Of a stretch of DNA of 64,000 nucleotides, positions 14,568-39,941 are shown in pieces. This stretch comes from an uncultured beta proteobacterium. GTDB taxonomy: Bacteria; Pseudomonadota; Gammaproteobacteria; Burkholderiales; SG8-41. The stretch lies in assembly GCA_903889565.1 (NCBI GenBank), contig CAISYC010000045.1, positions 67,192 to 131,191 of the forward strand, given 5' to 3'. Made by a program: the position numbers and the translations under genes. Position 1 is the stretch's first letter; every line of letters begins with the position of its first letter. Under the pieces are notes generated by a model that did no database searches, was not told the origin of the DNA, and saw only the letters and a list, made by a program, of their open reading frames with translations.

Positions 14568-14610
14568 GGCGGCGATACTCCGGATTCAGCGTTGAAAACG
14601 CCGGGGCCCA

Positions 14611-14638: not shown

Positions 14639-14666
14639 CCGCTGAAAACTGTGTCCCGAAAAACTC

Positions 14667-14879
14667 TTAATACATCTTCGGCGGCAGCATGTGCGCGCGC
14701 AGGCGCTTGTAGTGACGCTTCACCGCCGCAGCGTGCTTGCGCTTACGCTCCGAGGTCGGCTTCTCGTAGAATTCGCGCGCGCGCAATTCCGTCAGCAGCC
14801 CGGTTTTTTCAATGGTGCGCTTGAAGCGGCGCATCGCCACTTCGAACGGCTCGTTTTCCTTGACGCGTACGGTCGGCAT
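14667..14879 (-). CDS. rpsU: 30S ribosomal protein S21
   Basis: [21 protein letters not shown]... is the canonical S21 sequence. Confidence 0.97.
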
Positions 14880-14916
14880 AAAGCGGTTACCCAGTCGGAA
14901 ATTCGGAAAGGCGCGT

Positions 14917-14944
14917 ATTATAGCAGCGGCTTTTGCCTTGTCAA
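14917..14944 (-). promoter_or_regulatory. sigma-70-type promoter of the rpsU operon
   Basis: Minus strand has TTGACA (14939-14944), a 16-nt spacer and TATAAT (14917-14922), about 38 nt upstream of the rpsU ATG. Confidence 0.6.
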
Positions 14945-14977
14945 AGCACTGATTCAGGCGACATTTTCACCGCTCCC

Positions 14978-24670: not shown

Positions 24671-24738
24671 GCCGCAGTTACCGTTAAAATCCCCAATCCG
24701 CGCGGATTACCCCGCGCGCCAACGACACAGGAACCGTC

Positions 24739-25878
24739 ATGCCGAAAATCCAGTCCGTCTCCGTCAGCGTCGCGCGGGTTGCGCTCGACAACGTCACGTC
24801 CTTCGCCACGCGCACCGTCAGCGCGCGCGATTACTGCCTGGTCAAGGTGCGCTCGACCGCCGGCGTCGAAGGCATCGGCTTCTGCTACGTCGGCTCCGCC
24901 GGCGGCAATATCGCCAAGGTTGCCATCGAAGAACTGCTGGCGAAAAAGCTGATCGGCCAGGAATCGCTGCGGGTCGAAGGCCTGTGGCAGGAGATGTATT
25001 CCGAATCCATCCTGCAGGGGCGCGCGGGCAGCGTGATGCGCGCGATCTCGATACTCGACACCGCGATCTGGGACCTCAACGCGCGCAGCGCCAAGCTGCC
25101 GCTGTATCAGTACCTGGGCGCGAGCGCGAAGGACCGCGTGCCGGCCTACGCCAGCGGCGGTTATTACCTCGACGGCAAGACGCCGAAGAAACTCGGTCAG
25201 GAAATGGCCGGCTACGTCAAAGAAGGTTTCAAGGCGGTGAAGATGAAAGTCGGCCGCCTGACGCCGAAGGAAGAAGAAGCGCGCGTGCGCGCCGCGCGCG
25301 AAGCAATCGGTCCCGAGGTGCACCTGATGCTCGACGCCAACAACGCGTGGAGCGACCTGCCGACCGCGATGCGTTACATGGACCGCTACGACAAATACGA
25401 TCCGTACTGGATGGAAGAACCGTTCGGTCCGGATGAAATCGATCTGCACTCGCGCATGGCAGCGCTGACGCCGACCACCATCGCGACCGGCGAAATCGCC
25501 TGCGGCCGCTGGTACCACAAAGAGCTACTGGACAAGGGCGGCGCCGAGATTCTGCAGACGGATGCGGTGGTCTGCGGCGGCATCACCGAATGGAAACGCA
25601 TCGCGGCGACGGCAGCCAGCTATGGCGTGACCATGTGCCCGCACTGGTTCCACGATCTGCACGTGCATCTGGTGGCGGCAACACCGAACGCGCGCTATGT
25701 CGAGTTTTTCATCGACGACCAGGTGCTGAATTTCCGCCGCCTGATCGACACGCAATTGAAATACAAGGACGGCGACCTGCTGCTGCCGCAGACGCCGGGC
25801 CTCGGTTTCAATTTCGACGAAAAAGCCGTGAAGAAATACGCGCTCGACAAACAGCACGTCTGGACCACGATCAAGTAG
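24739..25878 (+). CDS. enolase-superfamily enzyme, mandelate racemase subgroup (acid-sugar/hydroxy-acid dehydratase type)
   Basis: KxK motif (VKMKVG) and metal-ligand contexts LDAN / MEEP / TGE. Confidence 0.85.
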   Translation: MPKIQSVSVSVARVALDNVTSFATRTVSARDYCLVKVRSTAGVEGIGFCYVGSAGGNIAKVAIEELLAKKLIGQESLRVEGLWQEMYSESILQGRAGSVMRAISILDTAIWDLNARSAKLPLYQYLGASAKDRVPAYASGGYYLDGKTPKKLGQEMAGYVKEGFKAVKMKVGRLTPKEEEARVRAAREAIGPEVHLMLDANNAWSDLPTAMRYMDRYDKYDPYWMEEPFGPDEIDLHSRMAALTPTTIATGEIACGRWYHKELLDKGGAEILQTDAVVCGGITEWKRIAATAASYGVTMCPHWFHDLHVHLVAATPNARYVEFFIDDQVLNFRRLIDTQLKYKDGDLLLPQTPGLGFNFDEKAVKKYALDKQHVWTTIK

Positions 25879-25980
25879 TTGTCGCAGCCTAGCCGGAAGG
25901 CGTGAAAAAATTCCGGGTTTGCTGCAGAGGGCAGTCCCGGAATACGCTGGGGTGATTCCGGGCTGCCGAACTCGCGCTTT

Positions 25981-26991
25981 TCAATTCGCCGCACCCGCCA
26001 ACTCACGCAACTGGCGCAGCGTCGCCTCCGGCACCGCGATACCGCTTTCTTCTGCGTCTGCTACCAGCTTGCGGCGCCGGGCGCCGGGCAACCTCACACC
26101 GTCGTCAGCAAGCATTGCCGCGAGCAGGGTTTCGATGCGCTCGTAATAAATATCCGCGCCGCCCAGCGCCGCCGGATCAATCGCGACGATGGCGTGGCCG
26201 AGCGAAGCGGGTTGACCGGGTTCGAAAAACGAATCGTTTTCAAAGCCGAAACGCGCGCCACTCAGCGCAACGCACAGGAGTTCAACCAGCAAGGCCAGCA
26301 TCACGCCTTTGACGCCGCCGATCGCGGCCATGCTGCCGGTCAGCGCGGCCTTGGCATCGGTGGTCGGGTTACCTGCCGCGTCGAACGCCCAACCCGGCGG
26401 AATCGGCTTGCCTTCTTTGGCCGCCAGCATGATCTTGCCCCGCGCCACTTCAGTCAGCGACAGATCGATCACCAGCGGCGCATCCGTTTTGCGCGGAAAT
26501 GCCGCCGCAACCGGATTGGTGCCGAACAACGGTCGCCGGCCGCCCCAGGCATTGATCGCCGCCGGCGAGTTGGTGAAACCCAGCGCAACCAGCCCCGCTT
26601 CAGCGAGCGGCGTGAGGTGATAATCCATCGCGCCGCAATGATGGCTGTTGGTAACGCCGCAGAAGGCGGCGCCCTGAACACGCGCGCGTTGTTTCGCTTC
26701 GCGCACCGCGAGTTCCATCGCGAGGTAAGCCAGTCCGCCCTGCGCGTCGATCAGGCAGGCCGCGGGCTTCTCATGCGCGATGCGCGGCGCGGCACGGCCA
26801 TTGGCGCGGCCGCTTTTCACATGTCCGGCGTACATCGCCACCCGCGACAAGCCGTGCCCGCCCTGCCCGGCCGCTTCCGCCGCCACCAGCGCACGCGCCG
26901 TTGCCGCGGCCATCGCCGGGGACGCGCCGGCATTTTCAAGCGCGCGCGCGACCAGCGCGATCAGTTCAGTCCGGGAAATGTTCAAATTCAA
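25981..26991 (-). CDS. Ldh2-family (malate/L-lactate/ureidoglycolate dehydrogenase type 2) oxidoreductase
   Basis: GHGLSRV..Y and NSHHCGA motifs. TTG start at 26991. Confidence 0.85.
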   Translation of the reverse strand: MNLNISRTELIALVARALENAGASPAMAAATARALVAAEAAGQGGHGLSRVAMYAGHVKSGRANGRAAPRIAHEKPAACLIDAQGGLAYLAMELAVREAKQRARVQGAAFCGVTNSHHCGAMDYHLTPLAEAGLVALGFTNSPAAINAWGGRRPLFGTNPVAAAFPRKTDAPLVIDLSLTEVARGKIMLAAKEGKPIPPGWAFDAAGNPTTDAKAALTGSMAAIGGVKGVMLALLVELLCVALSGARFGFENDSFFEPGQPASLGHAIVAIDPAALGGADIYYERIETLLAAMLADDGVRLPGARRRKLVADAEESGIAVPEATLRQLRELAGAAN

Positions 26992-27004
26992 ACAAGAAGC
27001 TTGT

Positions 27005-27110
27005 CAACCACAGCGGACGCAGAGATCTCCGAGAAAAGCAAAAAGAATTCAAAAGCAATGCTGTCATTGGCTTTCCATCTCCGTGAACTCTGTGTCCTCT
27101 GTGGCTGTTG
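27005..27110. repeat. REP/MITE-like imperfect palindromic element (copy A)
   Basis: Inverted pair of a 28-nt unit. The right arm (27078-27105) reads TCTCCGTGAACTCTGTGTCCTCTGTGGC; the left arm (27009-27035) is its imperfect reverse complement (22/27 matches). The A-rich loop lies between them. The element fills the Bug-to-Ldh2 intergenic spacer. Confidence 0.75.
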
Positions 27111-27114
27111 GTTC

Positions 27115-28077
27115 TCAATCCAGCTTCGTTCCGGAGCGCCTGGCGACATCGCCCCACTTCGCCGCTTCGCTGCGGAAGAACGCGGCGAATTCCGCCGGGC
27201 TGCTGCCGACCGCTTCGGCGCCCTCGTCGGCGAGGCGCTGCTTGACTTCGCCGTTGGCGAGTGCGGCGACCGTCTCGCGATGCAGCTTGTCGATGATGGC
27301 ACGCGGCGTCGCCGCCGGCGCAAACAGGCCGTTCCATTGCAGCGCGATGTGGCCCTGCACGCCGGCCTCTTCCATCGTCGGCACCTGCGGAATCACCGGC
27401 GCGCGCGTTTTCGCGGCGACGCCGAGTCCGCGCAAACGGTTGACGCGGATCTGCGCCTGCGCGACCGGCATTACCAGAAACGACACATGCGCCTCGCCCG
27501 ACATCACCGCGATGCCGGCGGGTGCCGCGCCCTTGTACGGCAAGTGCGTCAGTTTGGTTTGGGTCAGCAACTGAAACAGTTCCATCGCGAAATGCGACAT
27601 GGTGCCGGCGCCGGCGGTCGAGAAGGTCAGGACGCCGGGTCTCGCCTTGGCCATCGCGATCAGATCGCGCACGTTTTTTACCGGCAGCGAGGGGTGCGCC
27701 ACCAGCACAAACGGATACGACGAAACCATCGAAACTGGCACGAGGTCCCTGACCGGATCGAAACTGAGTTTGGTGTAAACGGCGGGGCTGATCGACAGCG
27801 ACGAATTGCCGAACAGCAGCGTGTAGCCGTCGGCCGGCGCCTTGGCAACGATCTCGGCGGCAATGTTGCCGCTGGCGCCGGCCCGGTTGTCGGCGACCAT
27901 CGTTTGCCCGAGGGATACGGACAGGCGCTGCGCCAGCACGCGCGCGACAGTGTCGCTGCCACCGCCGGCCGGAAACGGCACCACCATGCGGATCGATTTC
28001 ACCGGGTAGTCCTGCGCATACAGCAGAGACACCGCGCACAGGCATGCGGAGGCAGTGAGGGCGGTGCGAATGTTCAT
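27115..28077 (-). CDS. Bug-family (TctC-like) substrate-binding protein
   Basis: Signal peptide followed by DYPVKSIRMVVPFPAGGGSD. Its start overlaps the flavoprotein stop by 4 nt. Confidence 0.85.
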   Translation of the reverse strand: MNIRTALTASACLCAVSLLYAQDYPVKSIRMVVPFPAGGGSDTVARVLAQRLSVSLGQTMVADNRAGASGNIAAEIVAKAPADGYTLLFGNSSLSISPAVYTKLSFDPVRDLVPVSMVSSYPFVLVAHPSLPVKNVRDLIAMAKARPGVLTFSTAGAGTMSHFAMELFQLLTQTKLTHLPYKGAAPAGIAVMSGEAHVSFLVMPVAQAQIRVNRLRGLGVAAKTRAPVIPQVPTMEEAGVQGHIALQWNGLFAPAATPRAIIDKLHRETVAALANGEVKQRLADEGAEAVGSSPAEFAAFFRSEAAKWGDVARRSGTKLD

Positions 28078-29795
28078 GCGGTTTCCCGGTCGAGCAGCGA
28101 CTGGCCCGGCTTCACGCGCGTAAACGCAACCGGGCGTGTGGTGACCTCGAAGCGCTCGCCGCGCGCCCGCACGCAGGTGTAATGCGAGCGGTCGATATCG
28201 CGCGCCTCCGGAAAATCACTGCGAAAATGCGCGCCGCGCGAATCCTCGCGCGCGATCGCGGCCGCGCGGATCGAGCGGCTGACCAGGATCAGATTCTTCA
28301 GGTTGAGCCAGTCGTGCCAGGTCATGTTGAAGGCGCGGTTGCCGCCGTCGACGCCGATGCTGTCGATGCGCGCGGCAAGTTCTTCGAGTTTGCCGTCGGC
28401 GCGCGTGAGGCTCGCCGCATCGCGCACGATACCGACGTCGTCCCACATCAGATTGAAGAGTTCCTCGCGCACGGCATTCAGATCACCGGCCGGCTTGCCA
28501 AAGGGCGCGGTGCAGCGCGCCGCCGCCTCGGCCAGCGCCGCCGCATCGGGTTCGTTGAATGCGCCATGCCCGACGACCCAGCCCGGCATGACATCGCCGG
28601 CGATGCCGCCGAACACCGTCGAATTCGCTACACCGTTGCCGCCGAGGCGATTGGCGCCGTGCACGCCACCCGAATCCTCGCCGGCAACGAACAGACCCGC
28701 AAGTTCACTGCTGCAATCGGTCTTGAAAACGACCCCGCCCATCATGTAGTGCGCGGTCGGCACCACATCGACCAGCCCGGTGACCAGATCAAAGCCGCAA
28801 TCGGCGCAGCGCTCGACCATGCCCTTGAATTCCTTCCTCACCATCACCGGGTCGAGATGACGCATGGTGATGTAAAGGCCGCCGCCGGGCCCGACGCGAC
28901 CCGCGCGCATTTCCTCGTACATGCCGCGGCTGACGATATCGCGCGTGGCACGCTCGCCGCGCGGATCGTATTTGTGCATGAAACGCTCGCCGGCGCCATT
29001 GAGCAGGTAGCCCCCGGCCCCGCGCAGGCCCTCTTCGATGATAGTCCCGGTGATGCGCGTGTGCGCGCCGGCGATCAGTCCGGTCGGATGAAACTGCACC
29101 ATCTCCATGTCGCGCAGCGTGAGCCCGGCGCGCAGCGCCATCGCCATGCCGTCGCAGGTTTTGTCCCCCGATGGCGTGTGGAACTTGTACATGGTCGGCC
29201 CGCCGCCGGTGGCGAGCAGCACGGCCTGCGCCTGCACGAAGACGAATTCGCCGTCGCGCATATTGATCATCAGCACACCGGCGATCGCATCACCGGCTTT
29301 GTTCCGGATGAACTCGACCGCGCGGTGCTCTTCGAGCCGGTCGATGCCGCGCGCCCACACCTGTTCGGCAAGGCGATTGATGATCTCGATGCCGGTGAGG
29401 TCACCCTTGTGCACGGTGCGGTCGAAGGTCTGGCCGGCGAATGCCTTCTGGTGCACGGTGCCGTCGGGGTTGCGGTCGAAAAAACAGCCGAGTTCGTTTT
29501 CGAGTTCGTGAATGCACTTCACCGCACCGTTGACCAGCAGCCATGCCAGATCCTGATCGGGCAGCCACTTGCCGCCTTCGATCGTATCCATGAAATGGCG
29601 CTCGACCGAATCAGCCTCGGCGAGCGCCACGTTGTAGCCGCCCTGGACCATGCGCGTGCAGCCGCATTTGCCGAGCAGCCCTTTTACCGCCACCGTGATC
29701 GACAGCTTCGGGTTGGCCTGGTGCGCATGCAGCGCGGCAAACAGGCCGGCGCCGCCGGAACCGAGAATCAGGATATCGGTCTTGATGGTTCGCAC
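28074..29795 (-). CDS. succinate dehydrogenase/fumarate reductase-type flavoprotein subunit (atypical FAD site)
   Basis: DILILGSGGAGL, FHPTG, LRGAGG, AHYMMGG and GANRLGGN motifs. GTG start at 29795, 7 nt after the upstream stop. Confidence 0.85.
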   Translation of the reverse strand: MRTIKTDILILGSGGAGLFAALHAHQANPKLSITVAVKGLLGKCGCTRMVQGGYNVALAEADSVERHFMDTIEGGKWLPDQDLAWLLVNGAVKCIHELENELGCFFDRNPDGTVHQKAFAGQTFDRTVHKGDLTGIEIINRLAEQVWARGIDRLEEHRAVEFIRNKAGDAIAGVLMINMRDGEFVFVQAQAVLLATGGGPTMYKFHTPSGDKTCDGMAMALRAGLTLRDMEMVQFHPTGLIAGAHTRITGTIIEEGLRGAGGYLLNGAGERFMHKYDPRGERATRDIVSRGMYEEMRAGRVGPGGGLYITMRHLDPVMVRKEFKGMVERCADCGFDLVTGLVDVVPTAHYMMGGVVFKTDCSSELAGLFVAGEDSGGVHGANRLGGNGVANSTVFGGIAGDVMPGWVVGHGAFNEPDAAALAEAAARCTAPFGKPAGDLNAVREELFNLMWDDVGIVRDAASLTRADGKLEELAARIDSIGVDGGNRAFNMTWHDWLNLKNLILVSRSIRAAAIAREDSRGAHFRSDFPEARDIDRSHYTCVRARGERFEVTTRPVAFTRVKPGQSLLDRETA

Positions 29796-29802
29796 GCGGC
29801 GC

Positions 29803-30414
29803 CTAGGCCTTGACGCCCAGAGACGCCAGCACGCCGGCACGTTTGTCGCGCGCCGCCTTGTTCACGTCGGTATAAAGATTGCCACCGTGGCTGTCCATGG
29901 CCACCAGCAGCGGGCCGAAACCTTTGACGCGGAACTTCCACAGCGACTCGGGATTCAGATCGTCGAGATCGACGTCTTCGATCTGCTCGATCCAGGTCGT
30001 CTCCAGCGCGGCGGCGCCGCCGATGATGGCGAGGTAGGCGCCGCCCAAATCGCGAAACGCCGCCTGCGAAGCTGCGAACAATCCACCCTTGCCGATGGTG
30101 ATGCGCACGCCGTACTGCTCCATCAGCGGCCGCGTGAAGCGCTCCATGCGCGCGCTCGTCGTCGTGCCGACGCAAACCGGCGCATAGCCGCAGGGATTGG
30201 CCGCGGTTTCTCCAGTCCACTTCACGTTAGGCGCGGTATGAATCACGGCGTGGCCGCGCAGGTCGAAACGCGTCTTGCGCCCGCGGTCGAACATGTGAAT
30301 ATAGGTGGCATCGCGAATGCCGAACAAGATACCGTTCAGCGTGACGGTGTCATTGACCCGCAACGCGCGCACCTCGGCTTCGCTGACGGGCATATTGAAA
30401 TCGTAATGGGTCAT
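29803..30414 (-). CDS. class I Fe-S hydro-lyase beta subunit (fumarate hydratase C-terminal / tartrate dehydratase TtdB type)
   Basis: About 200 aa with RITIGKGG and GGAAAL motifs typical of the beta/C-terminal domain. GAGGA RBS upstream. Confidence 0.85.
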   Translation of the reverse strand: MTHYDFNMPVSEAEVRALRVNDTVTLNGILFGIRDATYIHMFDRGRKTRFDLRGHAVIHTAPNVKWTGETAANPCGYAPVCVGTTTSARMERFTRPLMEQYGVRITIGKGGLFAASQAAFRDLGGAYLAIIGGAAALETTWIEQIEDVDLDDLNPESLWKFRVKGFGPLLVAMDSHGGNLYTDVNKAARDKRAGVLASLGVKA

Positions 30415-30523
30415 CGTCCTCGGGTCCGTCTGCTGCGGAACTGGAATCCGGCCGCCTGAGCGGAATCGTCGTCACCGATTATAAAGGATTGCGTCGCCGG
30501 CACCGCGCGCGCCGCGCCCTGTC

Positions 30524-32584
30524 TCAACCCGAGCCCGCGGCGGCTGTCGCGTGATCGAAGAAATCCTCGAACTGGCGGACGGCGCTGCCGTCCTCATAGA
30601 GTGCTGCCGCGCGCGTCTGCTGCGTTTCGCGCAGATGCTGCGCCAGCGCACGGTCGTTTGCAATGCGCACAGCAAGAGCTGCGTATTCGTCAGCCGATTG
30701 CACCACCGTCTCGGTGAACCGCATCTTGCGGAAAAAGCCATAGGTATGCCGGCCGCGCTGCAAGGCCGAGGGCAGCGTCACCACCGGCGCGCCGGCGGTG
30801 ATCGCCTCGAGGCTGGTGTTGCCGCCGCAATAATGCAGCGTGTCGAGCACCACGTTGCAGCCGCGCAGCCGCTGCAGGTAGCCTTCCGCAGTCGGCGTGC
30901 GCGGCAGAAAAACGAAACGGTCGTAGACGTCAGGCGCGGTTCTTTGCAGCCGCGCCTGCAGCGTGCGCAGACGGTGCGTGTCGTAAGCGCCGCGGTGCGC
31001 GATGACGATTTCGCCGCCACCATCGCGGCGCAGGATGTCGGCGAGTATCGCGTCGAAATCCGGGTGCAGCTTGAACAACATCTGCGGGCAGAAATAAACG
31101 CGGCGGCCGCGGTCGAAGCCGGGTGCCGGCTGCACTGCCGCGACACTGTCCGGGCGGCGCTCGTAATAGCCGGGGAACGCGACATCCTTCAGCCGCAGCA
31201 GGCGCTCGCTGTATTGATGGTCGCTGTCCGCGGTCTCGAAACTGTCGGTGGAAATAAAATAATCCAGCGTCGGCACGCCGGAGGTGACCGGATGCCCCCA
31301 GGTCGTGCATTGAACGGGGGCGAGCCGCGCAAACGACAGAAAATAAGTCAGCGGATCCATGCCGATGTCGGGATACAACAGCACGTCGAGTCGGGCATTG
31401 GCGATGGCTTCACGCGCTTTGCCATAATCGCGCGTCAGCACGGTCCACGCATCGGCCGCGTTCTGCATGGCGCGGTAGACCGCATCTTCGCGTGCGCCGA
31501 AGACGAAACCATGCACGGAGACCCGCGTGCGATCGAACTGCGTAAACAGGCCGCGCATCACACGGCCGATGCTGTGATCATGCAGAAAGGTCGATGCGAT
31601 GCCGACGCGCAGCGGACCCGGCGTGCGCCCGTGCCAGCCGCCGCAATGCGGCGCAACAAAGCGCAGCCCCGGACAGGCCCGCACATGCAGCGCCGCGATG
31701 CGCTCGTGCAGATCGCGATCGTCCTCGCCCTGATAAGCCAGATTGAAGCTGGTGACACCGACCTCCGCCGCCGGATCGGCAACCGCCAGCGGACGACGGG
31801 AAAGCGCCTCGATTTCCTCGCGCAGGCGCGTGCGTACACGGCCGATTTGGTCGCGCGAGTCGAGCATGGACGGCAACGCCAGCGCGCGCACGATTGCGGC
31901 GCCATCGGCGGATTGCGCCGCACCGGCGTGGTCGGCAAGAGTTTTGCGCAGGGCCTCTTCGTCGCCCAGTTTGTACTGCACTGCGCACAGGTTTTGAAAC
32001 GCGCCACCGTTGGCCGGGTCAAGCTGCAATGCCCGCTGCAAATGCCCGATTGCGTCGTATGGCCGGTCGAGATTCAGCAGCGCGAGTCCGGCGCCGGCGT
32101 GCGCCGCGGACGAAGCGGGCGCCAGGGCGAGCGCGCCCTCGAACAACGCGAGCGCGCCGGCGTTGTCACCACGACGCTGCACCGAGAAGCCGGCATTCAC
32201 GCGCGGCTCCACCCACTCCGGCCGCTGATCGATGAGGCCGCGATAGACTCGTTCGGCCGCCGCATGGGCGTCGATACGCGCCAGCACGATCGCATAGTTG
32301 AAACGGACTTCGGGCGGCTGCGCCGCGAGCGCCAGCGCGCTTTCATAACAGCTTCGCGCTTCGGCATCGCGGCCGGCCTTGCGCAGCAATTCCGCCAGCA
32401 TTACCGGCAGCACCGGCGCAGCGGGGTCGGCCGCCATGCCTTCGCGCAACAGGCGTTCCGCGGCGGCGGTATCGCCCGAGTTTTGCGCAGCGAGCGCCGC
32501 CTGCAAACAGCGGCCGGCGCCGTGCGCCGGGGCAGCGCGTACAGGCGAAGCTGCGAAGAGATTGCCGAGCAGGCGCTTGAGCAT
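30524..32584 (-). CDS. TPR-repeat protein fused to a GT41-type (SPINDLY/OGT-like) glycosyltransferase domain
   Basis: Several TPR-like repeats (YDAIGHLQRALQLDPANGGAFQNL). C-terminal region includes VGIASTFLHDHSIG, LLYPDIGMD and HYCGGNTSLEAITAGAPVVTLP. Its ATG directly abuts the upstream methyltransferase stop. Confidence 0.75.
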   Translation of the reverse strand: MLKRLLGNLFAASPVRAAPAHGAGRCLQAALAAQNSGDTAAAERLLREGMAADPAAPVLPVMLAELLRKAGRDAEARSCYESALALAAQPPEVRFNYAIVLARIDAHAAAERVYRGLIDQRPEWVEPRVNAGFSVQRRGDNAGALALFEGALALAPASSAAHAGAGLALLNLDRPYDAIGHLQRALQLDPANGGAFQNLCAVQYKLGDEEALRKTLADHAGAAQSADGAAIVRALALPSMLDSRDQIGRVRTRLREEIEALSRRPLAVADPAAEVGVTSFNLAYQGEDDRDLHERIAALHVRACPGLRFVAPHCGGWHGRTPGPLRVGIASTFLHDHSIGRVMRGLFTQFDRTRVSVHGFVFGAREDAVYRAMQNAADAWTVLTRDYGKAREAIANARLDVLLYPDIGMDPLTYFLSFARLAPVQCTTWGHPVTSGVPTLDYFISTDSFETADSDHQYSERLLRLKDVAFPGYYERRPDSVAAVQPAPGFDRGRRVYFCPQMLFKLHPDFDAILADILRRDGGGEIVIAHRGAYDTHRLRTLQARLQRTAPDVYDRFVFLPRTPTAEGYLQRLRGCNVVLDTLHYCGGNTSLEAITAGAPVVTLPSALQRGRHTYGFFRKMRFTETVVQSADEYAALAVRIANDRALAQHLRETQQTRAAALYEDGSAVRQFEDFFDHATAAAGSG

Positions 32585-33178
32585 CTAGCTGCCGGCGGAG
32601 CCGCGCCGCCGCGCGAGCACGTTGAGACTGATCGGAATGCCGCCGCTGACGAGCGAGCTGTAATCGTCGAACAGCCCGAACTGATCGACGCGTTGGATAT
32701 CGATAAATCCGGCCTCGCCGAGATAGTGTTCAAGAATTTCGAAATCGAAGCCGGCCTTGTGATAGTCATAGGCGTCGCGATGGGCGCCGAACAGCATCTT
32801 GACCACCGTAAAGCGGTCGTCGACGGTCAGCGCCGGATGCAGAATCAGGCGCGCCAGCGCGCCGAGATCCGGCACGCTGAGATAGATGCGCCCGCCCGGC
32901 GCCAGCACGCGGTGCCATTCGGCCAGCGCACGCGCGACTTCTTCGCGAAAGTCGAAGTGCTCGAGGCAATGCGAGGCATAGACCTCGATGAAGCTGCCGT
33001 CGGCAAAGCGGCGCAGATCCTGCGCGTCGCCGAGGTGATCGACCGCCGGGCCCGGCAGCGCATTGAACACCTCCCAGCCTTCTTTGCGCACCTGCCCGCC
33101 GATATGCAGGCGGCGCTCGGCGCCGGCGGCGCGGGCGGGTGCTTGCACACGCAATCCTTTCAGCATTGACCACAGCAT
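32585..33178 (-). CDS. class I SAM-dependent methyltransferase (Methyltransf_11-like)
   Basis: FADGSFIEVYASHCLEHF...EWHRVLAPGGRIYLSVPD is typical of this family. The glycine-rich motif I is degenerate (LHIGGQVRKEGW). ATG at 33178. Confidence 0.65.
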   Translation of the reverse strand: MLWSMLKGLRVQAPARAAGAERRLHIGGQVRKEGWEVFNALPGPAVDHLGDAQDLRRFADGSFIEVYASHCLEHFDFREEVARALAEWHRVLAPGGRIYLSVPDLGALARLILHPALTVDDRFTVVKMLFGAHRDAYDYHKAGFDFEILEHYLGEAGFIDIQRVDQFGLFDDYSSLVSGGIPISLNVLARRRGSAGS

Positions 33179-33240
33179 GGCGGGATTATGCCGTTTTCGA
33201 TTTTGTGCAGTGGCCGGCCGATGCCATGGCCGGCGCCGGT

Positions 33241-34116
33241 TCAATAGCCGTAGCTGACGCCCTGCGGCGTAAATGTGGCGCGGGCGCGCCGCGCGGAATG
33301 GCATTGCATGTTGACCGCGACCGGGTTGAGCGTAATGTGCGTCGCGGCGGTTTCGACATGCACTGCAAAGGCGGTCGAATCGCCGCCCAGACCCTGGGCG
33401 CCGACGCCGAGCTGGTTGACCACCGCGGACAGTTCGACCTCCAGTTTTGCCCCTTCAGGGTCGTCGCATTGCGTGCCGAGCGCGCGTGTCGCCGCCACCT
33501 TCGACAAATGCACGCAAAGATCGGCGGTGCCCCCGACGCCGACGCCGACAATGGTCGGCGGACAGGTCTTGCCGCCGGCATCGAGCACGCAGTCGATGAC
33601 AAAGGTCTTGATCGCGTCGATGCCGTCGGCGGGGATCGCCATCTTCAGCCACGAATTGTTTTCGGAACCGCTGCCCTTTGGAATCATTTCGATCGACAGC
33701 GTATCGGGCGCCGCGCTGAACTCGACGTTGATCACCGGTATCTGGCGGCCACAGGAGGTCTGCGCATTCTCACGCGTCACCGGATGCACCACCGACGAAC
33801 GGAACGGGTGCTCTTTGGTCGCCCGCTCGCAGCCCTTGATGATGGCCTGCTTGAGCGCATAACCGTCGAACTCGACGCCGCGGCCGATCACCACGTTGTA
33901 AATCGGGATGCCGGTATCCTGGCACAGCAGGTTGTCGGTATCTTCGGCGACCCTGATGTTGCGGATCATCGTGCCGAGCACCGACTTGCCGGTCGCATCC
34001 GTCTCTGCCTTGTCGAGGCGGCTGAAGCCCTGCTTGATGTCGGGCGGCAGCCGCTTCAAGGCGCGGATGTAGATTTCCTTGCTCGCATCTTCGACCTGTT
34101 TCAAATCAATTTTCAT
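33241..34116 (-). CDS. class I Fe-S hydro-lyase alpha subunit (fumarate hydratase N-terminal / tartrate dehydratase TtdA type)
   Basis: LLCQDTGIP motif and about 290 aa. Partner of the beta-subunit gene at 29803..30414. Confidence 0.85.
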   Translation of the reverse strand: MKIDLKQVEDASKEIYIRALKRLPPDIKQGFSRLDKAETDATGKSVLGTMIRNIRVAEDTDNLLCQDTGIPIYNVVIGRGVEFDGYALKQAIIKGCERATKEHPFRSSVVHPVTRENAQTSCGRQIPVINVEFSAAPDTLSIEMIPKGSGSENNSWLKMAIPADGIDAIKTFVIDCVLDAGGKTCPPTIVGVGVGGTADLCVHLSKVAATRALGTQCDDPEGAKLEVELSAVVNQLGVGAQGLGGDSTAFAVHVETAATHITLNPVAVNMQCHSARRARATFTPQGVSYGY

Positions 34117-34128
34117 GCTCGGCTGCCG

Positions 34129-35088
34129 TTATTCCACCACAAGTTTGCGTTCACGCACGATCACTGCCCAGCGCGCGGTCTCGTCGCGTATCGCCTTCGC
34201 AAAATCGGCCGGGCTGTTGCCCACCGGCGCCATGCCAAGCCCATCAAAGCGGCTCCTGATATCGGGCGCCTCGAGTGCCTTCACCGTATCGCGATAGATT
34301 TTTTCGACAATTTCGCGCGGCGTGCCGGTCGCCACCATCAGTCCGAACCAGCCGATGTTTTCGAAACCGGGGTAGGTCTCGGCGATCGCCGGCACGTCGG
34401 GCAATTGCGCTGAGCGCTGTTTGCTGGTGACGCCGAGCGCGCGCAACCTGCCCTGTTTGATGAAGTTGATCGCCGCAGCCATGTTCGCGGTGGCGAACTG
34501 CACCTGACCGGCCATCACATCGGCAATTGCCGGCGCTTCGCCCTTGTAGGGAATATGAACGACATCGATACCCGTCAAGGCAATGAAGTTTTCCGCCGCC
34601 AGATGCGTCTGCGTGCTGAAGCCGGCCGAGCCGTAGGTGATCTCGCGCGGTCGCGCCTTGGCCAGCGCGACGAACTCCCTGACCGTCTTCGGCGGAAAAC
34701 TCGGCGTCACCACCAGCACCTGCGGACCGCTGGCGACATTGGTAATGGCGGCCAGATCCTTCGCCGGATCGAAGGGCATCTTGCGGTAGATATGCTGGTT
34801 CGCCGTAACGATCGATCCGGTGGTCATGAACAACGTGTAACCATCCGGGGTCGCCTTTGCCGCCAGTTCGCCGCCGATATTGCCGCCGGCGCCGGCGCGA
34901 TTGTCGACAACCACCTGCTGCCCCCAGGCTTCGCCGAGCTTCTGGCTGACCACGCGCGTGACGATATCGGCCGCGCCGCCGGCCACGAACGGCACAATGA
35001 TGCGCACCGGCCTCGCCGGATAAGCCTGCGCAAACGCCATTGACGGCAGAACCGCCAACGCAAACGCCAGCCGGATCGATCGGTTCAT
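34129..35088 (-). CDS. Bug-family (TctC-like) substrate-binding protein
   Basis: Signal peptide followed by AYPARPVRIIVPFVAGGAAD. GGGAGG RBS upstream. Confidence 0.85.
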   Translation of the reverse strand: MNRSIRLAFALAVLPSMAFAQAYPARPVRIIVPFVAGGAADIVTRVVSQKLGEAWGQQVVVDNRAGAGGNIGGELAAKATPDGYTLFMTTGSIVTANQHIYRKMPFDPAKDLAAITNVASGPQVLVVTPSFPPKTVREFVALAKARPREITYGSAGFSTQTHLAAENFIALTGIDVVHIPYKGEAPAIADVMAGQVQFATANMAAAINFIKQGRLRALGVTSKQRSAQLPDVPAIAETYPGFENIGWFGLMVATGTPREIVEKIYRDTVKALEAPDIRSRFDGLGMAPVGNSPADFAKAIRDETARWAVIVRERKLVVE

Positions 35089-35127
35089 GCGGCCTCCCGG
35101 AATGTCATGCGAAGCAGTGTAACAGCG

Positions 35128-35475
35128 TCAAACCACGTTGAGCGCGAAGGCCAGACCGATGACGACGCTGGCGCCGCCGGCGATGGCCAGCAACGATTTC
35201 TGATGGTCATGCCACGGCAGAAACTCGATGAGCAGCAAACGCAAGCCGCCGCAAAGATGCGCGCCCAGCAGCAGCACGAGGCCGCATTCGGCAAACTTTA
35301 CCAGCGGCTGCTCGGTCCAGCGCAGGAAGCCGTCGAGCGATTCGGCGCCCTGCAGGGCCTGCGCCAGCGCCCAGAAATGCAGCGGCAGAAAGAACGCCAA
35401 TAAAATTCCGCTTGCGCGGTGCACCGCGAATGCCCACCAGGCCGGATGATTGCGTGCGCGATAATCGTTTTTCAT
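35128..35475 (-). CDS. succinate dehydrogenase/fumarate reductase membrane anchor (cytochrome b-type, SdhC-like)
   Basis: Three hydrophobic helices and an AVHRASGILL motif resembling the SdhC HRxxG. Sits in a run with the Fe-S subunit gene. Confidence 0.65.
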   Translation of the reverse strand: MKNDYRARNHPAWWAFAVHRASGILLAFFLPLHFWALAQALQGAESLDGFLRWTEQPLVKFAECGLVLLLGAHLCGGLRLLLIEFLPWHDHQKSLLAIAGGASVVIGLAFALNVV

Positions 35476-35485
35476 CGCCGGCTGC

Positions 35486-35824
35486 TCAAGCGAATACCGC
35501 CAGCACCGCGCGCAGACCCCACAGCGCAAGCGCCATGCCGATGGCCAGCATGCCGGCGTTCACCGGCGCGCCGCGCCAGCCGAGGGTTTCATGAATCACG
35601 CTGCGCAGGCCGATCGGTGCGTGCACCGCAACGGCCGCCACAAACAATGCGTAAAACGCGAACCAGCCGTAACTGCCGCGCGTGCGCGAGAGGATTTCCG
35701 CCGCGCTCAAGCCACCGCGCACGGCGTATACCATGGTCGCCAGATGCACGATCACGCACAGCGCGAGCACTGCGGCGCTGGCGCGCTGCGCCAGCCACAG
35801 CAGGGTCTGCGCACGCGCGCTCAC
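35486..35824 (-). CDS. succinate dehydrogenase/fumarate reductase small membrane subunit
   Basis: 112 aa with three hydrophobic helices and conserved His residues. Its GTG start abuts the Fe-S subunit stop (TGAGTG). Confidence 0.6.
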   Translation of the reverse strand: MSARAQTLLWLAQRASAAVLALCVIVHLATMVYAVRGGLSAAEILSRTRGSYGWFAFYALFVAAVAVHAPIGLRSVIHETLGWRGAPVNAGMLAIGMALALWGLRAVLAVFA

Positions 35825-36538
35825 TCAGAGCTCCCCGTCGAGCGCGGCGGCAGCGGCAGCGCGTTTAAGGCCGGCGATGCCGATGGTCGGCGCAATCTGT
35901 TTGGGGCAGCGTTCACTGCAACTCATGTGTGTGTGACAGGCGTGACAACCGGCGTCGCCGGCAACCGCCACCAGCCGTTCGACGCGCCGCGTATCGCGCA
36001 CGTCGTTGTGCAGGGTCCACGCGCGGTTGAGCGCGGCGGGCCCGAGATAGTCGGGCTTCCACTGCACGACATCGCAGGCGCTGTAGCAGACGCCGCAGCC
36101 GATGCATTCGATGCCGGCATCGACATGGCGCCGCTGCGGCGAATCGGGCATTACGCGCGCGAAATCGTCGTCGCGCGTGCGCGCGCCGGTGAAACGCCCG
36201 CGGGCCTTCGCCCATTTGTCGAAGAACTGTTCCATGTTGGTGACCAGATCCTTGATCACCGGCAGGTTCGACAGCGGCGCAATTTCAAGCTGTCCGTCGG
36301 CGGCGACTTTTTCGACATGGGTGCGACAGGTCCAGCGCGCGCGGCCGTTGACGTTCATCGCGCAGGAACCGCAGACGCCGACGCGGCAGGCAAAGCGGTA
36401 GGCCAGCGAAGGATCGATCGCGCGTTGTATGTGCGTGACGACATCGAGCACCGTCTGGCTGGCCAGTCGCGGCACTTCGTACGTTTGAAAGCCGCCCTTC
36501 TCGGCACCGCGCCAGACCGCGACTTTCAGCATGGCCAT
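35825..36538 (-). CDS. succinate dehydrogenase/fumarate reductase iron-sulfur subunit
   Basis: Cys clusters CRVGVCGSCAMNVNG, CIGCGVCYSAC and CHACHTHMSCSERCP. Confidence 0.9.
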   Translation of the reverse strand: MAMLKVAVWRGAEKGGFQTYEVPRLASQTVLDVVTHIQRAIDPSLAYRFACRVGVCGSCAMNVNGRARWTCRTHVEKVAADGQLEIAPLSNLPVIKDLVTNMEQFFDKWAKARGRFTGARTRDDDFARVMPDSPQRRHVDAGIECIGCGVCYSACDVVQWKPDYLGPAALNRAWTLHNDVRDTRRVERLVAVAGDAGCHACHTHMSCSERCPKQIAPTIGIAGLKRAAAAAALDGEL

Positions 36539-36561
36539 CGTTAGCCGAAGAAACAGATTAA

Positions 36562-36632
36562 GCGACAGAGGACACCGAGTTCACCGAGAGAGTTTGTAAG
36601 TGTCACTCTGTTTTCTCCATGAACTCTGTGGC
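36562..36632. repeat. REP/MITE-like imperfect palindromic element (copy B)
   Basis: The reverse complement of 36562-36589 is TCTCGGTGAACTCGGTGTCCTCTGTCGC, matching the copy A unit at 25/28. Positions 36614-36632 read TCTCCATGAACTCTGTGGC, the same unit with a 9-nt deletion. The two arms can pair. The element fills the UxaA-to-SdhB spacer. Confidence 0.75.
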
Positions 36633-36645
36633 AGGGCCGTTTGAT

Positions 36646-37815
36646 TTACGCGCTTTCGTAGAGACGGGTCAGCACGAATTCACGGTGCCCCAGCGCCTCG
36701 GCAGCAGTCAGGCGGCCGTTGCAGGTGCGCAGCATCACCTCGAGCAGTTCTTCGCCGGTCTCGTCGAGATTTTTCTGGCGCTGCAACAGTCCCGAGCAAT
36801 CGTGATCGATATGTTCGGACATCGTGCGCACGGTGCGCGGATTGGCGCACAGCTTGATCACCGGCACGATCGGATTGCCGATGACATTGCCCTGCCCGGT
36901 CGGGAAGAAATGCACCACGTAGCCGGCGGCCGCGCACAGGGTCACCATTTCCGCCGCGGCGGACGACGAATCCATGAACCAGAGTCCGGGTTTGGTCGGC
37001 GTTTCCGCCTTGTCGAGACAACCGATCACCTTGCACTTCTTGCCGATCTTCTGGATATTGCCGAGCGCCTTTTCCTCGATCGTGGTCAGGCCGCCGGCGA
37101 TATTGCCCTTGGTCGGCTGCGAATCCGACAGATCGCTGGTTTTGTGCCGCTCGACCACTTCCTGATAACGGTTGAACATCGCCATGAAATGATCGCGCAC
37201 CTGCGGCGTCGCGCAGCGCGCGGCGACGATATGCTCGCCACCGGTGATCTCGGTGGTTTCACCGAACACCATGGTGACGCCGAGCGGTTCGAGTTTGTCG
37301 AAGGCATTGCCGACGGTCGGATTGGCGCCGCAGCCCGAGGTGGTGTCGGACTCGCCGCACTTGGTCGACACCCACAGATCGCTGATCGGGCACTCGACGC
37401 GCTGCAGTTCCGAAGCCCACTGCACGTATTCCTTCGCCACCTTGGACGCGCGCATGATGGTGTCGTGATCGCCGTGCAGCTCGATGCCGAAGCCGGTTAC
37501 CGGTTTGCCGGTCCTGGCGATGCCATCGACGACTTTTTTTGTCCACTCGGACTCGATGCCGATGACGACCACCGCGGCGACATTCGGGTTGGCGCCGGTG
37601 CCGATGATAGTGCGGAAATGCAGATCGAGATCGGCGCCAAACTGCAGACGACCGTAGGGATGGGGGATCGCCAGCGTGCCCTTGATATTGTTGGCGACGC
37701 CTTCGCAGGCCGCATTGGCCAGATCGTCGACCGGCAGGATGATGACGTGATTGCGCACGCCGACGCGGCCGTTTTCGCGGCGATAGCCCCAGAATGTCGT
37801 ATTGCTGGAAATCAT
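36646..37815 (-). CDS. UxaA-family (altronate/galactarate dehydratase-type) large subunit
   Basis: [21 protein letters not shown]... is typical of the UxaA C-terminal catalytic domain. GGAGA RBS upstream. Confidence 0.85.
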
Positions 37816-37855
37816 GATTTCTCCAAATTGTTATCGTCGCGACTGCGGCGCACGT

Positions 37856-38137
37856 TTACCAGCGTTTGGTTTTTATATTGTGCACATGCGCGTGCGCGCC
37901 GGCCTTGATATCGGCGATCGATTTGCCGATGTCGATGCCGTACTTGATGATGGTTTCACCGCTCTTGATGTCCTTGAGGGCGAGCTTGTGGCCGATCGGA
38001 ATGTCCTGCTCCGCCTTGAGCGCGATCGTGCGATCTTCGTCCATAATCCAGCCGGTCAGCTCCTGCCCGGCCTTGACGCCCTCGACCACCACCACGGCGA
38101 CGGTGTCCTTCGGGTCATGCAATACGAAATGAATCAT
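37856..38137 (-). CDS. UxaA-family small subunit (SAF domain)
   Basis: 93 aa with DTVAVVV...IPIGHKLALKDIKSGETIIKYG, the N-terminal SAF module of altronate dehydratases. AGGAG RBS upstream. Confidence 0.85.
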   Translation of the reverse strand: MIHFVLHDPKDTVAVVVVEGVKAGQELTGWIMDEDRTIALKAEQDIPIGHKLALKDIKSGETIIKYGIDIGKSIADIKAGAHAHVHNIKTKRW

Positions 38138-38246
38138 GCCTGCTCCTGATCGATACCTTTGAATTCCCCACGCGGGGCGGATTGCGGAATATGACTGCGG
38201 CCGATACTACACGCCTGCTGAAATAAGCGTCAACCGCTCGCGGCGT

Positions 38247-39941
38247 CTAGAGTTTCTGTATTTCGCGACGGATCGCGTCGAGCTTCTCCGGATCCTTGAT
38301 GTTTTTAAGCAGCCAGTTGAATTGCGTGCGCGCGTCGTCCTTCATGCCGGCACGACCGAGATTGGCCGCCGCGGCGATACGCGCGTTGATCGACAGGAGG
38401 TCTGGCGGGCGCGCATCCATCATCAGCGCCGCCTCGAGAAACTGGTCGGCAGCGCGCGGAAAATCGTAATTCGCCTCGGCAATCCGCGCAATGCCATAAA
38501 GAATGTCGCGGCGTTCGCGCAGGGCTGCCAGCGGCAGCAATGCGCGGTAGAGTTCATCGGCTGTCTTGTAATGCCCGGCGTCCTGCATCTCGACAATCAC
38601 TGCAATGGCGCGCCGCATCAATTCCGCCGGCAGGGATTTTTTGTCACCGACGAGCGCGCGCAATGCTTCGCTGCCGGCGCTGACGGCGCCCGCGCGCACC
38701 AGGGACTGGGCGAGCCGCAGATTCCAGTCATCGGCATCCAGATCAGGCGGCGCATTTAAGCCGATCCACCAGCGCGCCGCCGGCTCCTGCAGGTTGTTGT
38801 CGGCCGCCATGCCGCCAAGCAGAAAGCGCGCCTGCGGATCGAGTTGGGTCGATGGAAACCGTGCGGCATCGCCGAACAGGCGCACCGCCGTCAGCGGCAG
38901 CCTCGAACCCTGCAGCGAATAAACGAGCTGCAATTGCGCGCTCAGACGCGTCGCGCGCACCTTGCTGTTGATCGCCAAATAAGCAAAAAACGCGCGGCTG
39001 GCCGTCGCGCTGGTAGCGGCGCGCCGCGCGCCGAAATCGGCCCAGTTGCTCTCGTCACCGACCAGCAGCTGCTCCTGGTTGGCGATTTCCTGCGCCGCCG
39101 CCGCATACGCCTTCCAGAGTTCGGCAGCCATCGCGGCAGTGCGTTCGGGCACCTTGTCCGCGGCCAGCTGCAACAGGTTTTCCATCGCCTCGACATTGAG
39201 GATGGTGTTGCGCTGCGCGGCGGCCGCATATTGCAGCACAATCCAGTACGGTACCGCCGCGGCATTTTTCGCGAGCCCCGCGCGCGCCTGCGTGATCGCG
39301 GCTTCCGGCGTAACGAGATTGGTCTGCAGACGCAGCAACAACTTCACCGGACTGGCTTCGTCGAGCTGGGCGAACCAGTTGATCGCCTCCTTCTCCATGC
39401 CGCTGGCAAGCAGCGCATCGACAAACCGTGCAGCGGTGTCGCGATCGACCGGTTTGTAGTCCTGCTGATAACGCAACATCAGGGCGTACGCCTCGCGCGG
39501 CTTGTTTTCAGCGAGGTAGCTTTCGATCACCAGCAAACGCGCCTGGCGCAATTCTTCGGCAGAGGTTTCGTTCTGCCACAAAAGACGCGCCAGCAGATCG
39601 CGGCCGGCCGCGCCCTGGCCGACGGCAATCGCCGCGCGCGCGCCCTGCATGAGGCAAAAGCGCGCGACGTTTTGCGGCACGGTGTTCGGCAAGGTGGCGA
39701 TGCGTTTCGCCAGTTCCTGATGGCGGTTGAGGCGGTACATCAGCGTGCAGCGCAATTGCTCCCAATCGCCCCAGCGCGGCGCCGACACCGCAGCGGGTTG
39801 CTGCTGATCGACTCGGGCAAGCGCGGCCTGCCATGCGCCGGCATCGGCAAAACGCTGCGCGATGTCGAGCGGATCGGACACGCCCTGCGCAGGCGCGGCG
39901 AGAGACAGCATAAGAAGCAGGAACAGGTACAGGAGGCGCAT
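38247..39941 (-). CDS. hypothetical secreted, predominantly helical protein (564 aa)
   Basis: Clear signal peptide MRLLYLFLLLMLSLAAPAQG. Ala/Leu-rich helical-repeat-like sequence with no motif I can assign. The track start at 40214 is rejected because it crosses a terminator and rplS. Confidence 0.6.
   Translation of the reverse strand: MRLLYLFLLLMLSLAAPAQGVSDPLDIAQRFADAGAWQAALARVDQQQPAAVSAPRWGDWEQLRCTLMYRLNRHQELAKRIATLPNTVPQNVARFCLMQGARAAIAVGQGAAGRDLLARLLWQNETSAEELRQARLLVIESYLAENKPREAYALMLRYQQDYKPVDRDTAARFVDALLASGMEKEAINWFAQLDEASPVKLLLRLQTNLVTPEAAITQARAGLAKNAAAVPYWIVLQYAAAAQRNTILNVEAMENLLQLAADKVPERTAAMAAELWKAYAAAAQEIANQEQLLVGDESNWADFGARRAATSATASRAFFAYLAINSKVRATRLSAQLQLVYSLQGSRLPLTAVRLFGDAARFPSTQLDPQARFLLGGMAADNNLQEPAARWWIGLNAPPDLDADDWNLRLAQSLVRAGAVSAGSEALRALVGDKKSLPAELMRRAIAVIVEMQDAGHYKTADELYRALLPLAALRERRDILYGIARIAEANYDFPRAADQFLEAALMMDARPPDLLSINARIAAAANLGRAGMKDDARTQFNWLLKNIKDPEKLDAIRREIQKL

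Follow-up and report, generated by a model that had tools for sequence, protein, structure and literature searches.

In a 64,000-nucleotide stretch of DNA from an uncultured beta proteobacterium (contig CAISYC010000045.1; hereafter the window), the genes for the alpha and beta subunits of a two-subunit Fe-S hydro-lyase are separated by two further genes, one for a methyltransferase of a family marked by an RxLHIGG motif and one for a protein that combines tetratricopeptide repeats (TPR) with a glycosyltransferase domain of family GT41. We show that this pair was inserted between formerly coupled alpha and beta genes. The insertion is recent and confined to a small lineage, and it does not amount to a new way of controlling the pathway. 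We see the module as a chance arrival, functionally unconnected with the hydro-lyase/Sdh island around it and not a regulator of that pathway; it belongs to a known type, the systems in which GT41 and methyltransferase activities decorate filaments. The explanation that we favour, with a probability of about 0.6, is that a self-contained methyltransferase and TPR-GT41 module of the flagellin- or pilin-decorating type entered the locus in a common ancestor and remained functionally independent of the genes around it. The insertion would date to the recent common ancestor of the lineages represented by the window and by two related loci, L005 and L003.

The evidence for insertion comes from the state of the alpha/beta junction in relatives. 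A scan of one genome per species gave 80 loci with an alpha subunit 77-92% identical to that of the window, all of them metagenome-assembled genomes (MAGs) of uncultured Burkholderiales/Betaproteobacteria; the 15 proteins of the window were placed on these loci by tblastn, and the gap between the alpha (FumA) and beta (FumB) genes was counted in 79. The gap is empty and only 2-262 nt long in 60 of them, which bears out the expectation, voiced in an earlier sequence-only reading of the window, that the two genes are normally adjacent in this hydro-lyase family. A gap of approximately 550-670 nt with a secreted Chalcone_3-family gene occurs in 16 loci, and single loci have 1.2 kb with a 357-aa gene of unknown kind (L047), 5.2 kb with a different cassette (L025), and 3.6 kb with the methyltransferase-GT41 pair and a Chalcone_3 gene (L005). 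In the window itself, where the adjacency usual for two-subunit class I fumarases and tartrate dehydratases is absent, the distance from alpha to beta is 2826 nt. The junction of the closest relative by alpha subunit (L012, 92% identity) reads TGA-AC-ATG, FumB starting about 5 nt after the end of FumA, and the window beta subunit is 91% identical to the L012 FumB over its full length. The arrangement in L012 and 59 other loci indicates an ancestral state in which alpha and beta lay about 5 nt apart. Among contexts retrieved through the GT41 protein, the pair separates alpha from beta in just the window (with its identical contigs L001 and L002) and L005 (72% GT41 identity), so that the comparison of orthologous loci finds it confined to these and not family-wide; in about 75 of the 79 species, the island lacks a GT41 gene altogether.

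An insertion at this point would be tolerated, as transcription could read through the insert (no terminator-like site was found in the 3' spacer or on either side of the pair) and the beta gene would receive its Shine-Dalgarno sequence, and perhaps also a promoter, from the 3' spacer. The junction is not exceptional, because the island is generally a mosaic, with gaps longer than 400 nt in 26 of 46 loci for UxaL/SdhB, 18 of 77 for FumA/FumB and 4 of 62 for FumB/SdhA. The 2826-nt insert holds two genes only, with no transposase, integrase or recombinase open reading frame (ORF), and a search for direct and inverted repeats at its boundaries (30380-33300) returned G+C-rich background matches without terminal inverted repeats or target duplication; with no attC site either, none of the marks of a mobile element or integron cassette is found in it. 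A foreign composition of the pair was considered and ruled out, since its GC and GC3 are indistinguishable from those of its neighbours (GC3 0.77-0.79 for the pair, 0.75-0.83 in neighbouring genes). The sequence-only reading had offered a selfish two-gene cassette as one possibility. Its insertion part stands, given the adjacent ancestral state and the restriction of the pair to the window and L005; the word selfish does not, given the lack of mobility genes, boundary repeats and compositional anomaly. No paper was found that describes a fumarase operon split by a GT41 insertion.

The Chalcone_3 gene that occupies the junction elsewhere encodes a secreted chalcone-isomerase-like protein of approximately 190 aa and was seen in the FumA/FumB gap of L014, L054, L067, L073, L074 and L077-L083, as well as of L086, L087, L089 and L090. 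The L005 copy (10236-10853) lies downstream of the pair, and its ORF starts with a second copy of the FumB N-terminus (MTHHDFSMP...), which points to a scar left by recombination.

The larger protein of the pair carries the features by which CAZy recognises GT41, namely a catalytic domain scoring above threshold (approximately residues 320-676), the catalytic residues, and an N-terminal TPR array (approximately residues 28-215, with TPR family matches at 28-208). The catalytic domain aligns over about 350 residues with those of XcOGT, Thermobaculum TtOGT, Arabidopsis SPINDLY (SPY), human OGT and Actinobacillus NGT (E = 1e-13 to 1e-26; phmmer gave 2.7e-26 for TtOGT, 2.2e-18 for SPINDLY, 9e-17 for XcOGT and 1e-13 for NGT), and it shares with these characterised enzymes the catalytic His, the diphosphate-binding Lys and the T-S/T loop. 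His337 aligns with XcOGT His218, Lys505 in the motif LFKLHP with the Lys of the XcOGT SYKLNP and SPY LAKITP motifs, and the GGNTS loop (T590/S591) with the TT of other GT41 enzymes; we take XcOGT His218 and Lys388 to be equivalent to human OGT His498 and Lys842. His337, Lys505 and GGNTS are all conserved in five orthologues, and the catalytic residues are thus intact, as the sequence-only reading had required of a working enzyme. The window protein differs from the characterised enzymes in having only about 25-30% identity to them and a shorter TPR array of about 5-6 repeats; among orthologues, these N-terminal 215 or so residues diverge faster than the catalytic core. Members of GT41 use UDP-GlcNAc, GDP-fucose or UDP-glucose, so the donor sugar of the window enzyme is not inferable from its family, and to our knowledge the cellular targets of XcOGT are not known. 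A second TPR-GT41 gene of the window (8208-9929, minus strand; 573 aa, PF13844 302 bits) lies directly downstream of rpoD (9955-12180) and dnaG (12247-14046) and has no adjacent methyltransferase gene.

The smaller protein is probably an active methyltransferase, for which S-adenosylmethionine (SAM) binding is predicted. Its Methyltransf_11 match covers profile columns 47-94 only, and its family has the invariant residues R22/L24/H25/G27/G28 (R-x-L-H-I-G-G), invariant GWE, SHxLEH and SVPD motifs, and many invariant His and Asp residues. An AlphaFold2 model of good predicted confidence (pLDDT, predicted local distance difference test, 88.5) has a trimmed class I methyltransferase fold, and the top Foldseek matches are all SAM methyltransferases (E = 1e-8, probability 1.0), with a template-modelling (TM) score of only about 0.5. 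A sequence search of the PDB with this protein gave only marginal matches (E at least 0.03), and a literature search with COG4627 turned up no paper describing the family.

The methyltransferase family is a recurrent partner of GT41 enzymes. Among 80 metagenomic loci with homologues 41-72% identical to the window protein, 43 have enough flanking sequence to be informative, and in 29 of these a GT41 catalytic-domain gene is adjacent, eight of the 29 being in-frame fusions in one ORF. An exhaustive profile search returned 394 cluster representatives at E ≤ 1e-30; among the best 150 of the 394, 75 are at least 550 aa long, and five of ten representatives scanned with Pfam contain GT41 domains. 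The fusions occur in both orders, as methyltransferase-TPR-GT41, which is the gene order of the window (P0297, P0303), and as TPR-GT41-methyltransferase (P0260, P0263, P0267). Where the two activities are separate genes, a tight junction between them recurs. In the window, the methyltransferase TAG (32587-32585) abuts the GT41 ATG (32584-32582), a junction that the sequence-only reading had already described; the stop also abuts or overlaps the GT41 start in L003 and L005, and more distant homologues have similarly close junctions (ATGA in L172, TGA-CC-ATG in L141, TGA-G-ATG in L100). The partnership of the RxLHIGG methyltransferase with bacterial TPR-GT41 enzymes, adjacent in about two thirds of informative loci, therefore provides a testable handle on the targets of bacterial SPINDLY/OGT-like proteins, and the prediction that follows from it is that filament subunits are both glycosylated and methylated.

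The prediction draws on a recurrent neighbour of the family, flagellin. A flagellin gene lies within 2 kb of the methyltransferase gene in 9 of the 80 loci and in 7 of the 34 with at least 6 kb of flank, or about one fifth of the latter; a 1.25-Mb control composed of the island loci plus the window contains none. In L172, whose methyltransferase is 58% identical to that of the window, fliT-fliS-fliD-fliC-fliC is divergent from methyltransferase-(ATGA)-TPR-GT41, and L141 reads fliC-fliC | methyltransferase-GT41. Further homologues adjoin flagellin genes in L105, L129, L159 and other loci, and the flagellin-linked members are spread over the methyltransferase family tree.

These associations recall three characterised or predicted systems. 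In the flagellin glycosylation islands of enterobacteria, nearly all GT41 enzymes carry AdoMet (SAM)-methyltransferase domains (De Maayer & Cowan 2016, PMC4875605). The combination of a SPINDLY-type GT41 with a SAM-methyltransferase is that of the window, and homologues of the window methyltransferase likewise adjoin flagellin and are fused to GT41, these homologues in both orders. The window differs in that its activities reside in separate, translationally coupled genes placed inside a catabolic operon and not at a flagellin locus; moreover, the enterobacterial functions are themselves predictions, and their methyltransferase domains are likened to ours by description and not by membership of the RxLHIGG family. 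The second system is Caulobacter crescentus FlmG, in which the TPR domain has been proposed to confer specificity for flagellin and the glycosyltransferase domain alone failed to restore flagellin modification (PMC7591256). FlmG is a soluble protein with an N-terminal TPR and a C-terminal GT-B domain, an architecture by which we liken it to the window GT41 protein, and it offers a mechanistic model of how an enzyme of the window type would work, although FlmG founded a class of its own, is not described as GT41, transfers pseudaminic acid, and has no methyltransferase partner. The third is Ogt of Synechococcus elongatus, a bacterial GT41 homologue that is reported to be needed for glycosylation of a pilus subunit (bioRxiv 10.1101/2021.07.06.449578). 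This enzyme acts on a filament subunit, and two members of the window GT41 group lie near a pilin gene; in contrast, no methyltransferase partner is reported for Ogt, the window contains no pilin gene, and the pilin association is seen at two loci only.

The module comes from a widespread family of paired or fused methyltransferase and TPR-GT41 enzymes whose recurrent home is the flagellin locus. On the favoured reading, its TPR domain would capture, in the cytoplasm, a filament subunit, flagellin or possibly type IV pilin, encoded elsewhere in the genome; the GT41 domain would then transfer a sugar from a nucleotide-sugar onto Ser/Thr, and the partner methyltransferase would methylate that sugar or the same protein. 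Whereas the insertion and its distribution, the methyltransferase-GT41 partnership, the flagellin neighbours of homologues and the intact GT41 residues are observed directly, we infer what the pair modifies, which sugar it adds, what accepts the methyl group and which promoters (discussed below) serve it. The location that defines a flagellin glycosylation island is found in the more distant methyltransferase homologues and not in the window pair, and our proposal is accordingly that the window pair would work like a flagellin glycosylation module, not that it is part of one.

Several observations weigh against this reading. No flagellin-like ORF turned up anywhere in the 64-kb window, nor in any of the nine contexts that represent its GT41 orthologue group, and because that group is never found beside flagellin, the target of the window subfamily may have changed. 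A type IV pilin gene does lie near two members of the group, approximately 50 nt downstream in L174 (9106-9531) and approximately 4 kb away in L176 (2720-3142); the pilin sequence in L174/L176 reads FTLIELMIVVAIIGILAA..., and the island loci, 1.19 Mb in all, contain no pilin-like ORF. The target could therefore instead be pilin or something else. We rejected a preference for pilin over flagellin as too thinly sampled, since a pilin gene was seen at just two loci of the GT41 orthologue group and at three of the methyltransferase family. The methyltransferase is itself atypical: of the features expected of a class I SAM methyltransferase, the profile score above threshold and the Rossmann-like fold are present, but GxGxG motif I is not, the invariant R-x-L-H-I-G-G leading directly into strand 2, and the AlphaFold2 model has neither helix A after strand 1 nor a helix after strand 2. 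The catalytic and cofactor residues whose presence the sequence-only reading had made a point of are thus found for GT41 and, as far as GxGxG is concerned, not for the methyltransferase. Finally, the methyltransferase domain is also fused to partners other than GT41. Sampled architectures include TPR-sulfotransferase-methyltransferase, TPR-FkbM-methyltransferase, methyltransferase-HPAT-like and methyltransferase-methyltransferase, and in P0252, P0256, P0259, P0261 and P0284 the RxLHIGG domain is joined to TPR plus FkbM, TPR plus sulfotransferase, a second methyltransferase with MethyTransf_Reg, or an HPAT-like glycosyltransferase. These fusions suggest that the RxLHIGG domain has a general tailoring role in TPR-guided modification enzymes, and because of them the acceptor of the methyltransferase is not necessarily the GT41 product.

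Such fusions also lend some weight to the idea that the pair acts on a non-protein acceptor (polysaccharide, lipid or small molecule), for instance by forming an O-methylated sugar cap. FkbM-type methyltransferases, sulfotransferases and HPAT-like enzymes also occur in glycan-tailoring clusters, L006 has additional GT41 genes and a TylF methyltransferase gene nearby, and the window has no adjacent target gene. We nevertheless regard this alternative as unlikely. All characterised GT41 members modify proteins (OGT, SPY, NGT/HMW1C and the Synechococcus Ogt, which is reported to act on a pilus subunit), TPR domains are protein-binding modules, and in none of the nine contexts do sugar-biosynthesis or export genes accompany the pair.

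The replacement of motif I, the missing helices, the modest TM-scores to solved methyltransferases and the many invariant His and Asp residues would also fit a methyltransferase-like protein that serves as a non-catalytic adaptor or chaperone of GT41, or an enzyme with a different chemistry. This, too, seems improbable to us, and slightly more so, given that the Methyltransf_11 score exceeds the Pfam gathering threshold, that the best structural matches are uniformly SAM methyltransferases with probability 1.0, and that the protein is strongly conserved (dN/dS 0.07). In addition, D54-L55 and SHxLEH presumably correspond to the usual methyltransferase motifs.

That the module is independent of the pathway around it is best seen in L003 (7278-10271). 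The flanking UxaA, MR_MLE and Iso_dh proteins of this locus are 97-98% identical to those of the window, making it the closest relative, and yet its order is rplS...UxaA-large, methyltransferase, GT41, TctC, Ldh_2, without SdhBDC-TctC-FumA on one side of the pair and without FumB-SdhA on the other. Because the more distant L005 shares the arrangement of the window, the L003 state appears to be derived, the pathway genes having been lost and the pair kept. When the L003 spacers were compared with the island of the window by blastn-short, only the start regions of the methyltransferase and TctC genes matched, and since the spacers hold no scars of the lost genes, the direction of change rests on the phylogenetic distribution. 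The GT41 proteins of the window and L003 are 79% identical, although the flanking enzymes are at 97-98%. Between the two loci, the methyltransferase gene shows a dN/dS of 0.073 and the GT41 gene one of 0.145, compared with 0.01-0.04 for core enzymes and 0.16 for Ldh_2; both genes of the pair are under purifying selection. In addition, GT41 orthologues with 52-66% identity to the window protein occur in six unrelated contexts. Three of these include the methyltransferase: between soxYZ and moaC (L006), between an NAD_binding_2 gene and an FAD_binding_4 gene (L010), and next to rhodanese and HTH genes (L175). The other three do not: between glmM and tpiA (L008/L009), behind sox genes and closely followed by a pilin gene (L174), and after a cho-like gene (L176).

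These findings bear directly on the suggestion of the sequence-only reading that the pair is coupled to the pathway, glycosylating or methylating the hydro-lyase, the Sdh-like complex or the TctC proteins as a form of post-translational control. The pair does lie on the operon strand with no terminator detected on either side, its arrangement is kept in L005 at 72% GT41 identity, the island has no regulator gene, and an independent TPR-GT41 and methyltransferase cassette occupies the same junction in L025. However, about 75 of 79 species manage the island without GT41, L003 retains the pair under continuing purifying selection after losing its Fum and Sdh genes, the L025 cassette is on the opposite strand, and the recurrent neighbour of the family is flagellin. 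A pathway-linked function is not supported, because the pair is found at unrelated loci, the very outcome that the earlier reading had named as its refutation, and we consider such coupling quite improbable.

The L025 locus deserves separate comment, since it is the remaining observation that counts against a module unconnected with the island. Its independent 5.1-kb insertion (10895-16012) at the same alpha/beta junction contains, on the minus strand, opposite to the operon, a non-orthologous TPR-GT41 gene (35% identity), a radical-SAM/SPASM protein gene and a Methyltransf_23/14 C-methyltransferase gene, and on the plus (operon) strand a gene for a YdjM-like membrane protein. The 1.25 Mb examined contain only three GT41 genes, two of which lie at the FumA/FumB junction. 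Since every one of these loci has FumA at its centre and insertions are tolerated at the junction, we estimate the chance of a second GT41 cassette landing there at roughly 6-20%; pure chance explains the finding only moderately well. If the junction were a recurrent, selected landing site for TPR-GT41 and methyltransferase cassettes, used by the window/L005 lineage and independently by L025, expression of protein glycosylation could be deliberately tied to the dicarboxylate pathway, or the GT41 enzymes could have the Fe-S hydro-lyase or the Sdh-like complex as their target. The coincidence is noteworthy and yet not persuasive, and we hold a selected landing site to be highly doubtful.

The least credible alternative is that the pair is the ancestral resident of the site, as the L003 order UxaA-methyltransferase-GT41-TctC without Sdh/Fum remnants might suggest, and that the Sdh and hydro-lyase genes arrived on either side of it as separate pieces. 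Two independent insertions would then have had to rebuild an island that 60 other loci possess uninterrupted, with alpha next to beta. The present distribution, in which L005, more distant than L003, shares the window arrangement and so marks L003 as derived, makes this most unlikely.

The module as inserted extends from 30415 to 33240 and comprises the two genes and their spacers, which carry candidate signals of their own. The 5' spacer has no Shine-Dalgarno sequence and carries, 6 nt upstream of the methyltransferase ATG, a GCATAAT box that is kept at equal spacing in the window, L003, L005 and L006/L007 despite the different genes upstream (FumA, UxaA-large, soxY). This conservation suggests that the box is the module's own promoter and produces a leaderless or near-leaderless mRNA. 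In the 3' spacer, the perfect TATAAT noted in the sequence-only reading is indeed present (30483-30478, minus strand), and the Shine-Dalgarno sequence of the beta gene is GAGGA (30421-30417). The block that ends in TATAAT, TTGCCGGCG..AATC(A/C)TTTATAAT (also written ...TTGCCGGCG..AATCATTTATAAT), is kept in the window, L005 and L003 and is not present downstream of the pair in L006 or L010. As it is kept before differing next genes (FumB in the window, Chalcone_3 in L005, TctC in L003), the TATAAT belongs to the inserted segment of the window/L005/L003 lineage. A perfect TATAAT is not expected by chance in 109 nt of DNA with 63% G+C, and it may drive the downstream genes, although no acceptable -35 hexamer accompanies it and its -35 spacing of 14 nt is non-canonical. 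A consensus promoter scan did not pick out this box or the CATAAT ahead of the methyltransferase gene, as both lack a usable -35 at a spacing of 16-18 nt, so the argument for promoter function is one from conservation alone. The positions of these elements and of the surrounding genes are given in the table; domain matches confirmed the coordinates, strands and identities that the sequence-only reading had assigned to the alpha, beta, methyltransferase and TPR-GT41 genes.

Table. Genes and spacers of the inserted module and the surrounding island, with positions in the window.
Feature	Coordinates	Strand	Details
UxaA-small	37856-38137	-	93 aa; half of split UxaA-type dehydratase
UxaA-large	36646-37815	-	389 aa; half of split UxaA-type dehydratase
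SdhB	35825-36538	-	
SdhD	35486-35824	-	
SdhC		-	between SdhD and TctC-type gene in array order
TctC-type binding protein	34129-35088	-	
Hydro-lyase alpha (FumA/TtdA type)	33241-34116	-	291 aa; PF05681 283 bits; CQDTG; upstream flank of insert
Module 5' spacer	33179-33240	-	conserved GCATAAT box (CATAAT = 33190-33185)
Methyltransf_11 protein, RxLHIGG family	32585-33178	-	197 aa; PF08241 39.2 bits (cut-off 21.2)
TPR + Glyco_transf_41 protein	30524-32584	-	686 aa; PF13844 61.9 bits (cut-off 25)
Module 3' spacer	30415-30523	-	109 nt; conserved block ending in TATAAT; Shine-Dalgarno for beta
Hydro-lyase beta (FumA C-terminus/TtdB type)	29803-30414	-	203 aa, intact; PF05683 105.6 bits; downstream flank of insert
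SdhA-like flavoprotein	28074-29795	-	
Second TctC	27115-28077	-	
Ldh_2 dehydrogenase	25981-26991	-	

The genes that flank the insert are of the TtdAB type, the two-subunit class I fumarase/L(+)-tartrate dehydratase, with Fumerase and Fumerase_C domains on separate polypeptides and the Cys motif CQDTG in alpha. The alpha subunit scores 294.6 bits against model NF004885 (cut-off 276), and the beta subunit falls slightly under the TIGR00723 cut-off (138.7 vs 145.15), one respect in which it differs from the TtdAB type. The flanks further differ in being embedded in an island with an SdhABCD paralogue, TctC proteins, a split UxaA-type dehydratase and Ldh_2. A single long minus-strand gene array spans 23.6-38.2 kb of the window, with the MR_MLE and Iso_dh genes divergent on the opposite strand. 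The island proper (23612-38137, and loci L012-L091) looks catabolic and interleaves a complete SdhB-D-C...SdhA paralogue with the two-subunit Fe-S hydro-lyase; its order UxaA-SdhBDC-TctC-FumA-FumB-SdhA-(TctC)-Ldh_2 is conserved across related loci, with one or two TctC genes. In annotated equivalents of the locus, the stretch from ffh/rpsP/rplS to the DctM transporter gene downstream has no called regulator gene, in agreement with the sequence-only reading, and an Rfam scan of 27000-39000 gave no matches. NCBIfam provided no equivalog-level match on the island genes that would reveal the substrate, the sole exception being the generic 'fumarate hydratase' model of the alpha subunit. As a by-product of our analysis, an island with an SdhABCD paralogue and a hydro-lyase emerges as conserved in at least 80 species-level MAGs of uncultured Burkholderiales. 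Some frames in the island are broken, with SdhA split in L001 (3843-5559), a contig otherwise identical to the window, and FumB and SdhA fragmented in L005 (10894-14200); these could be assembly frameshifts or incipient pseudogenes.

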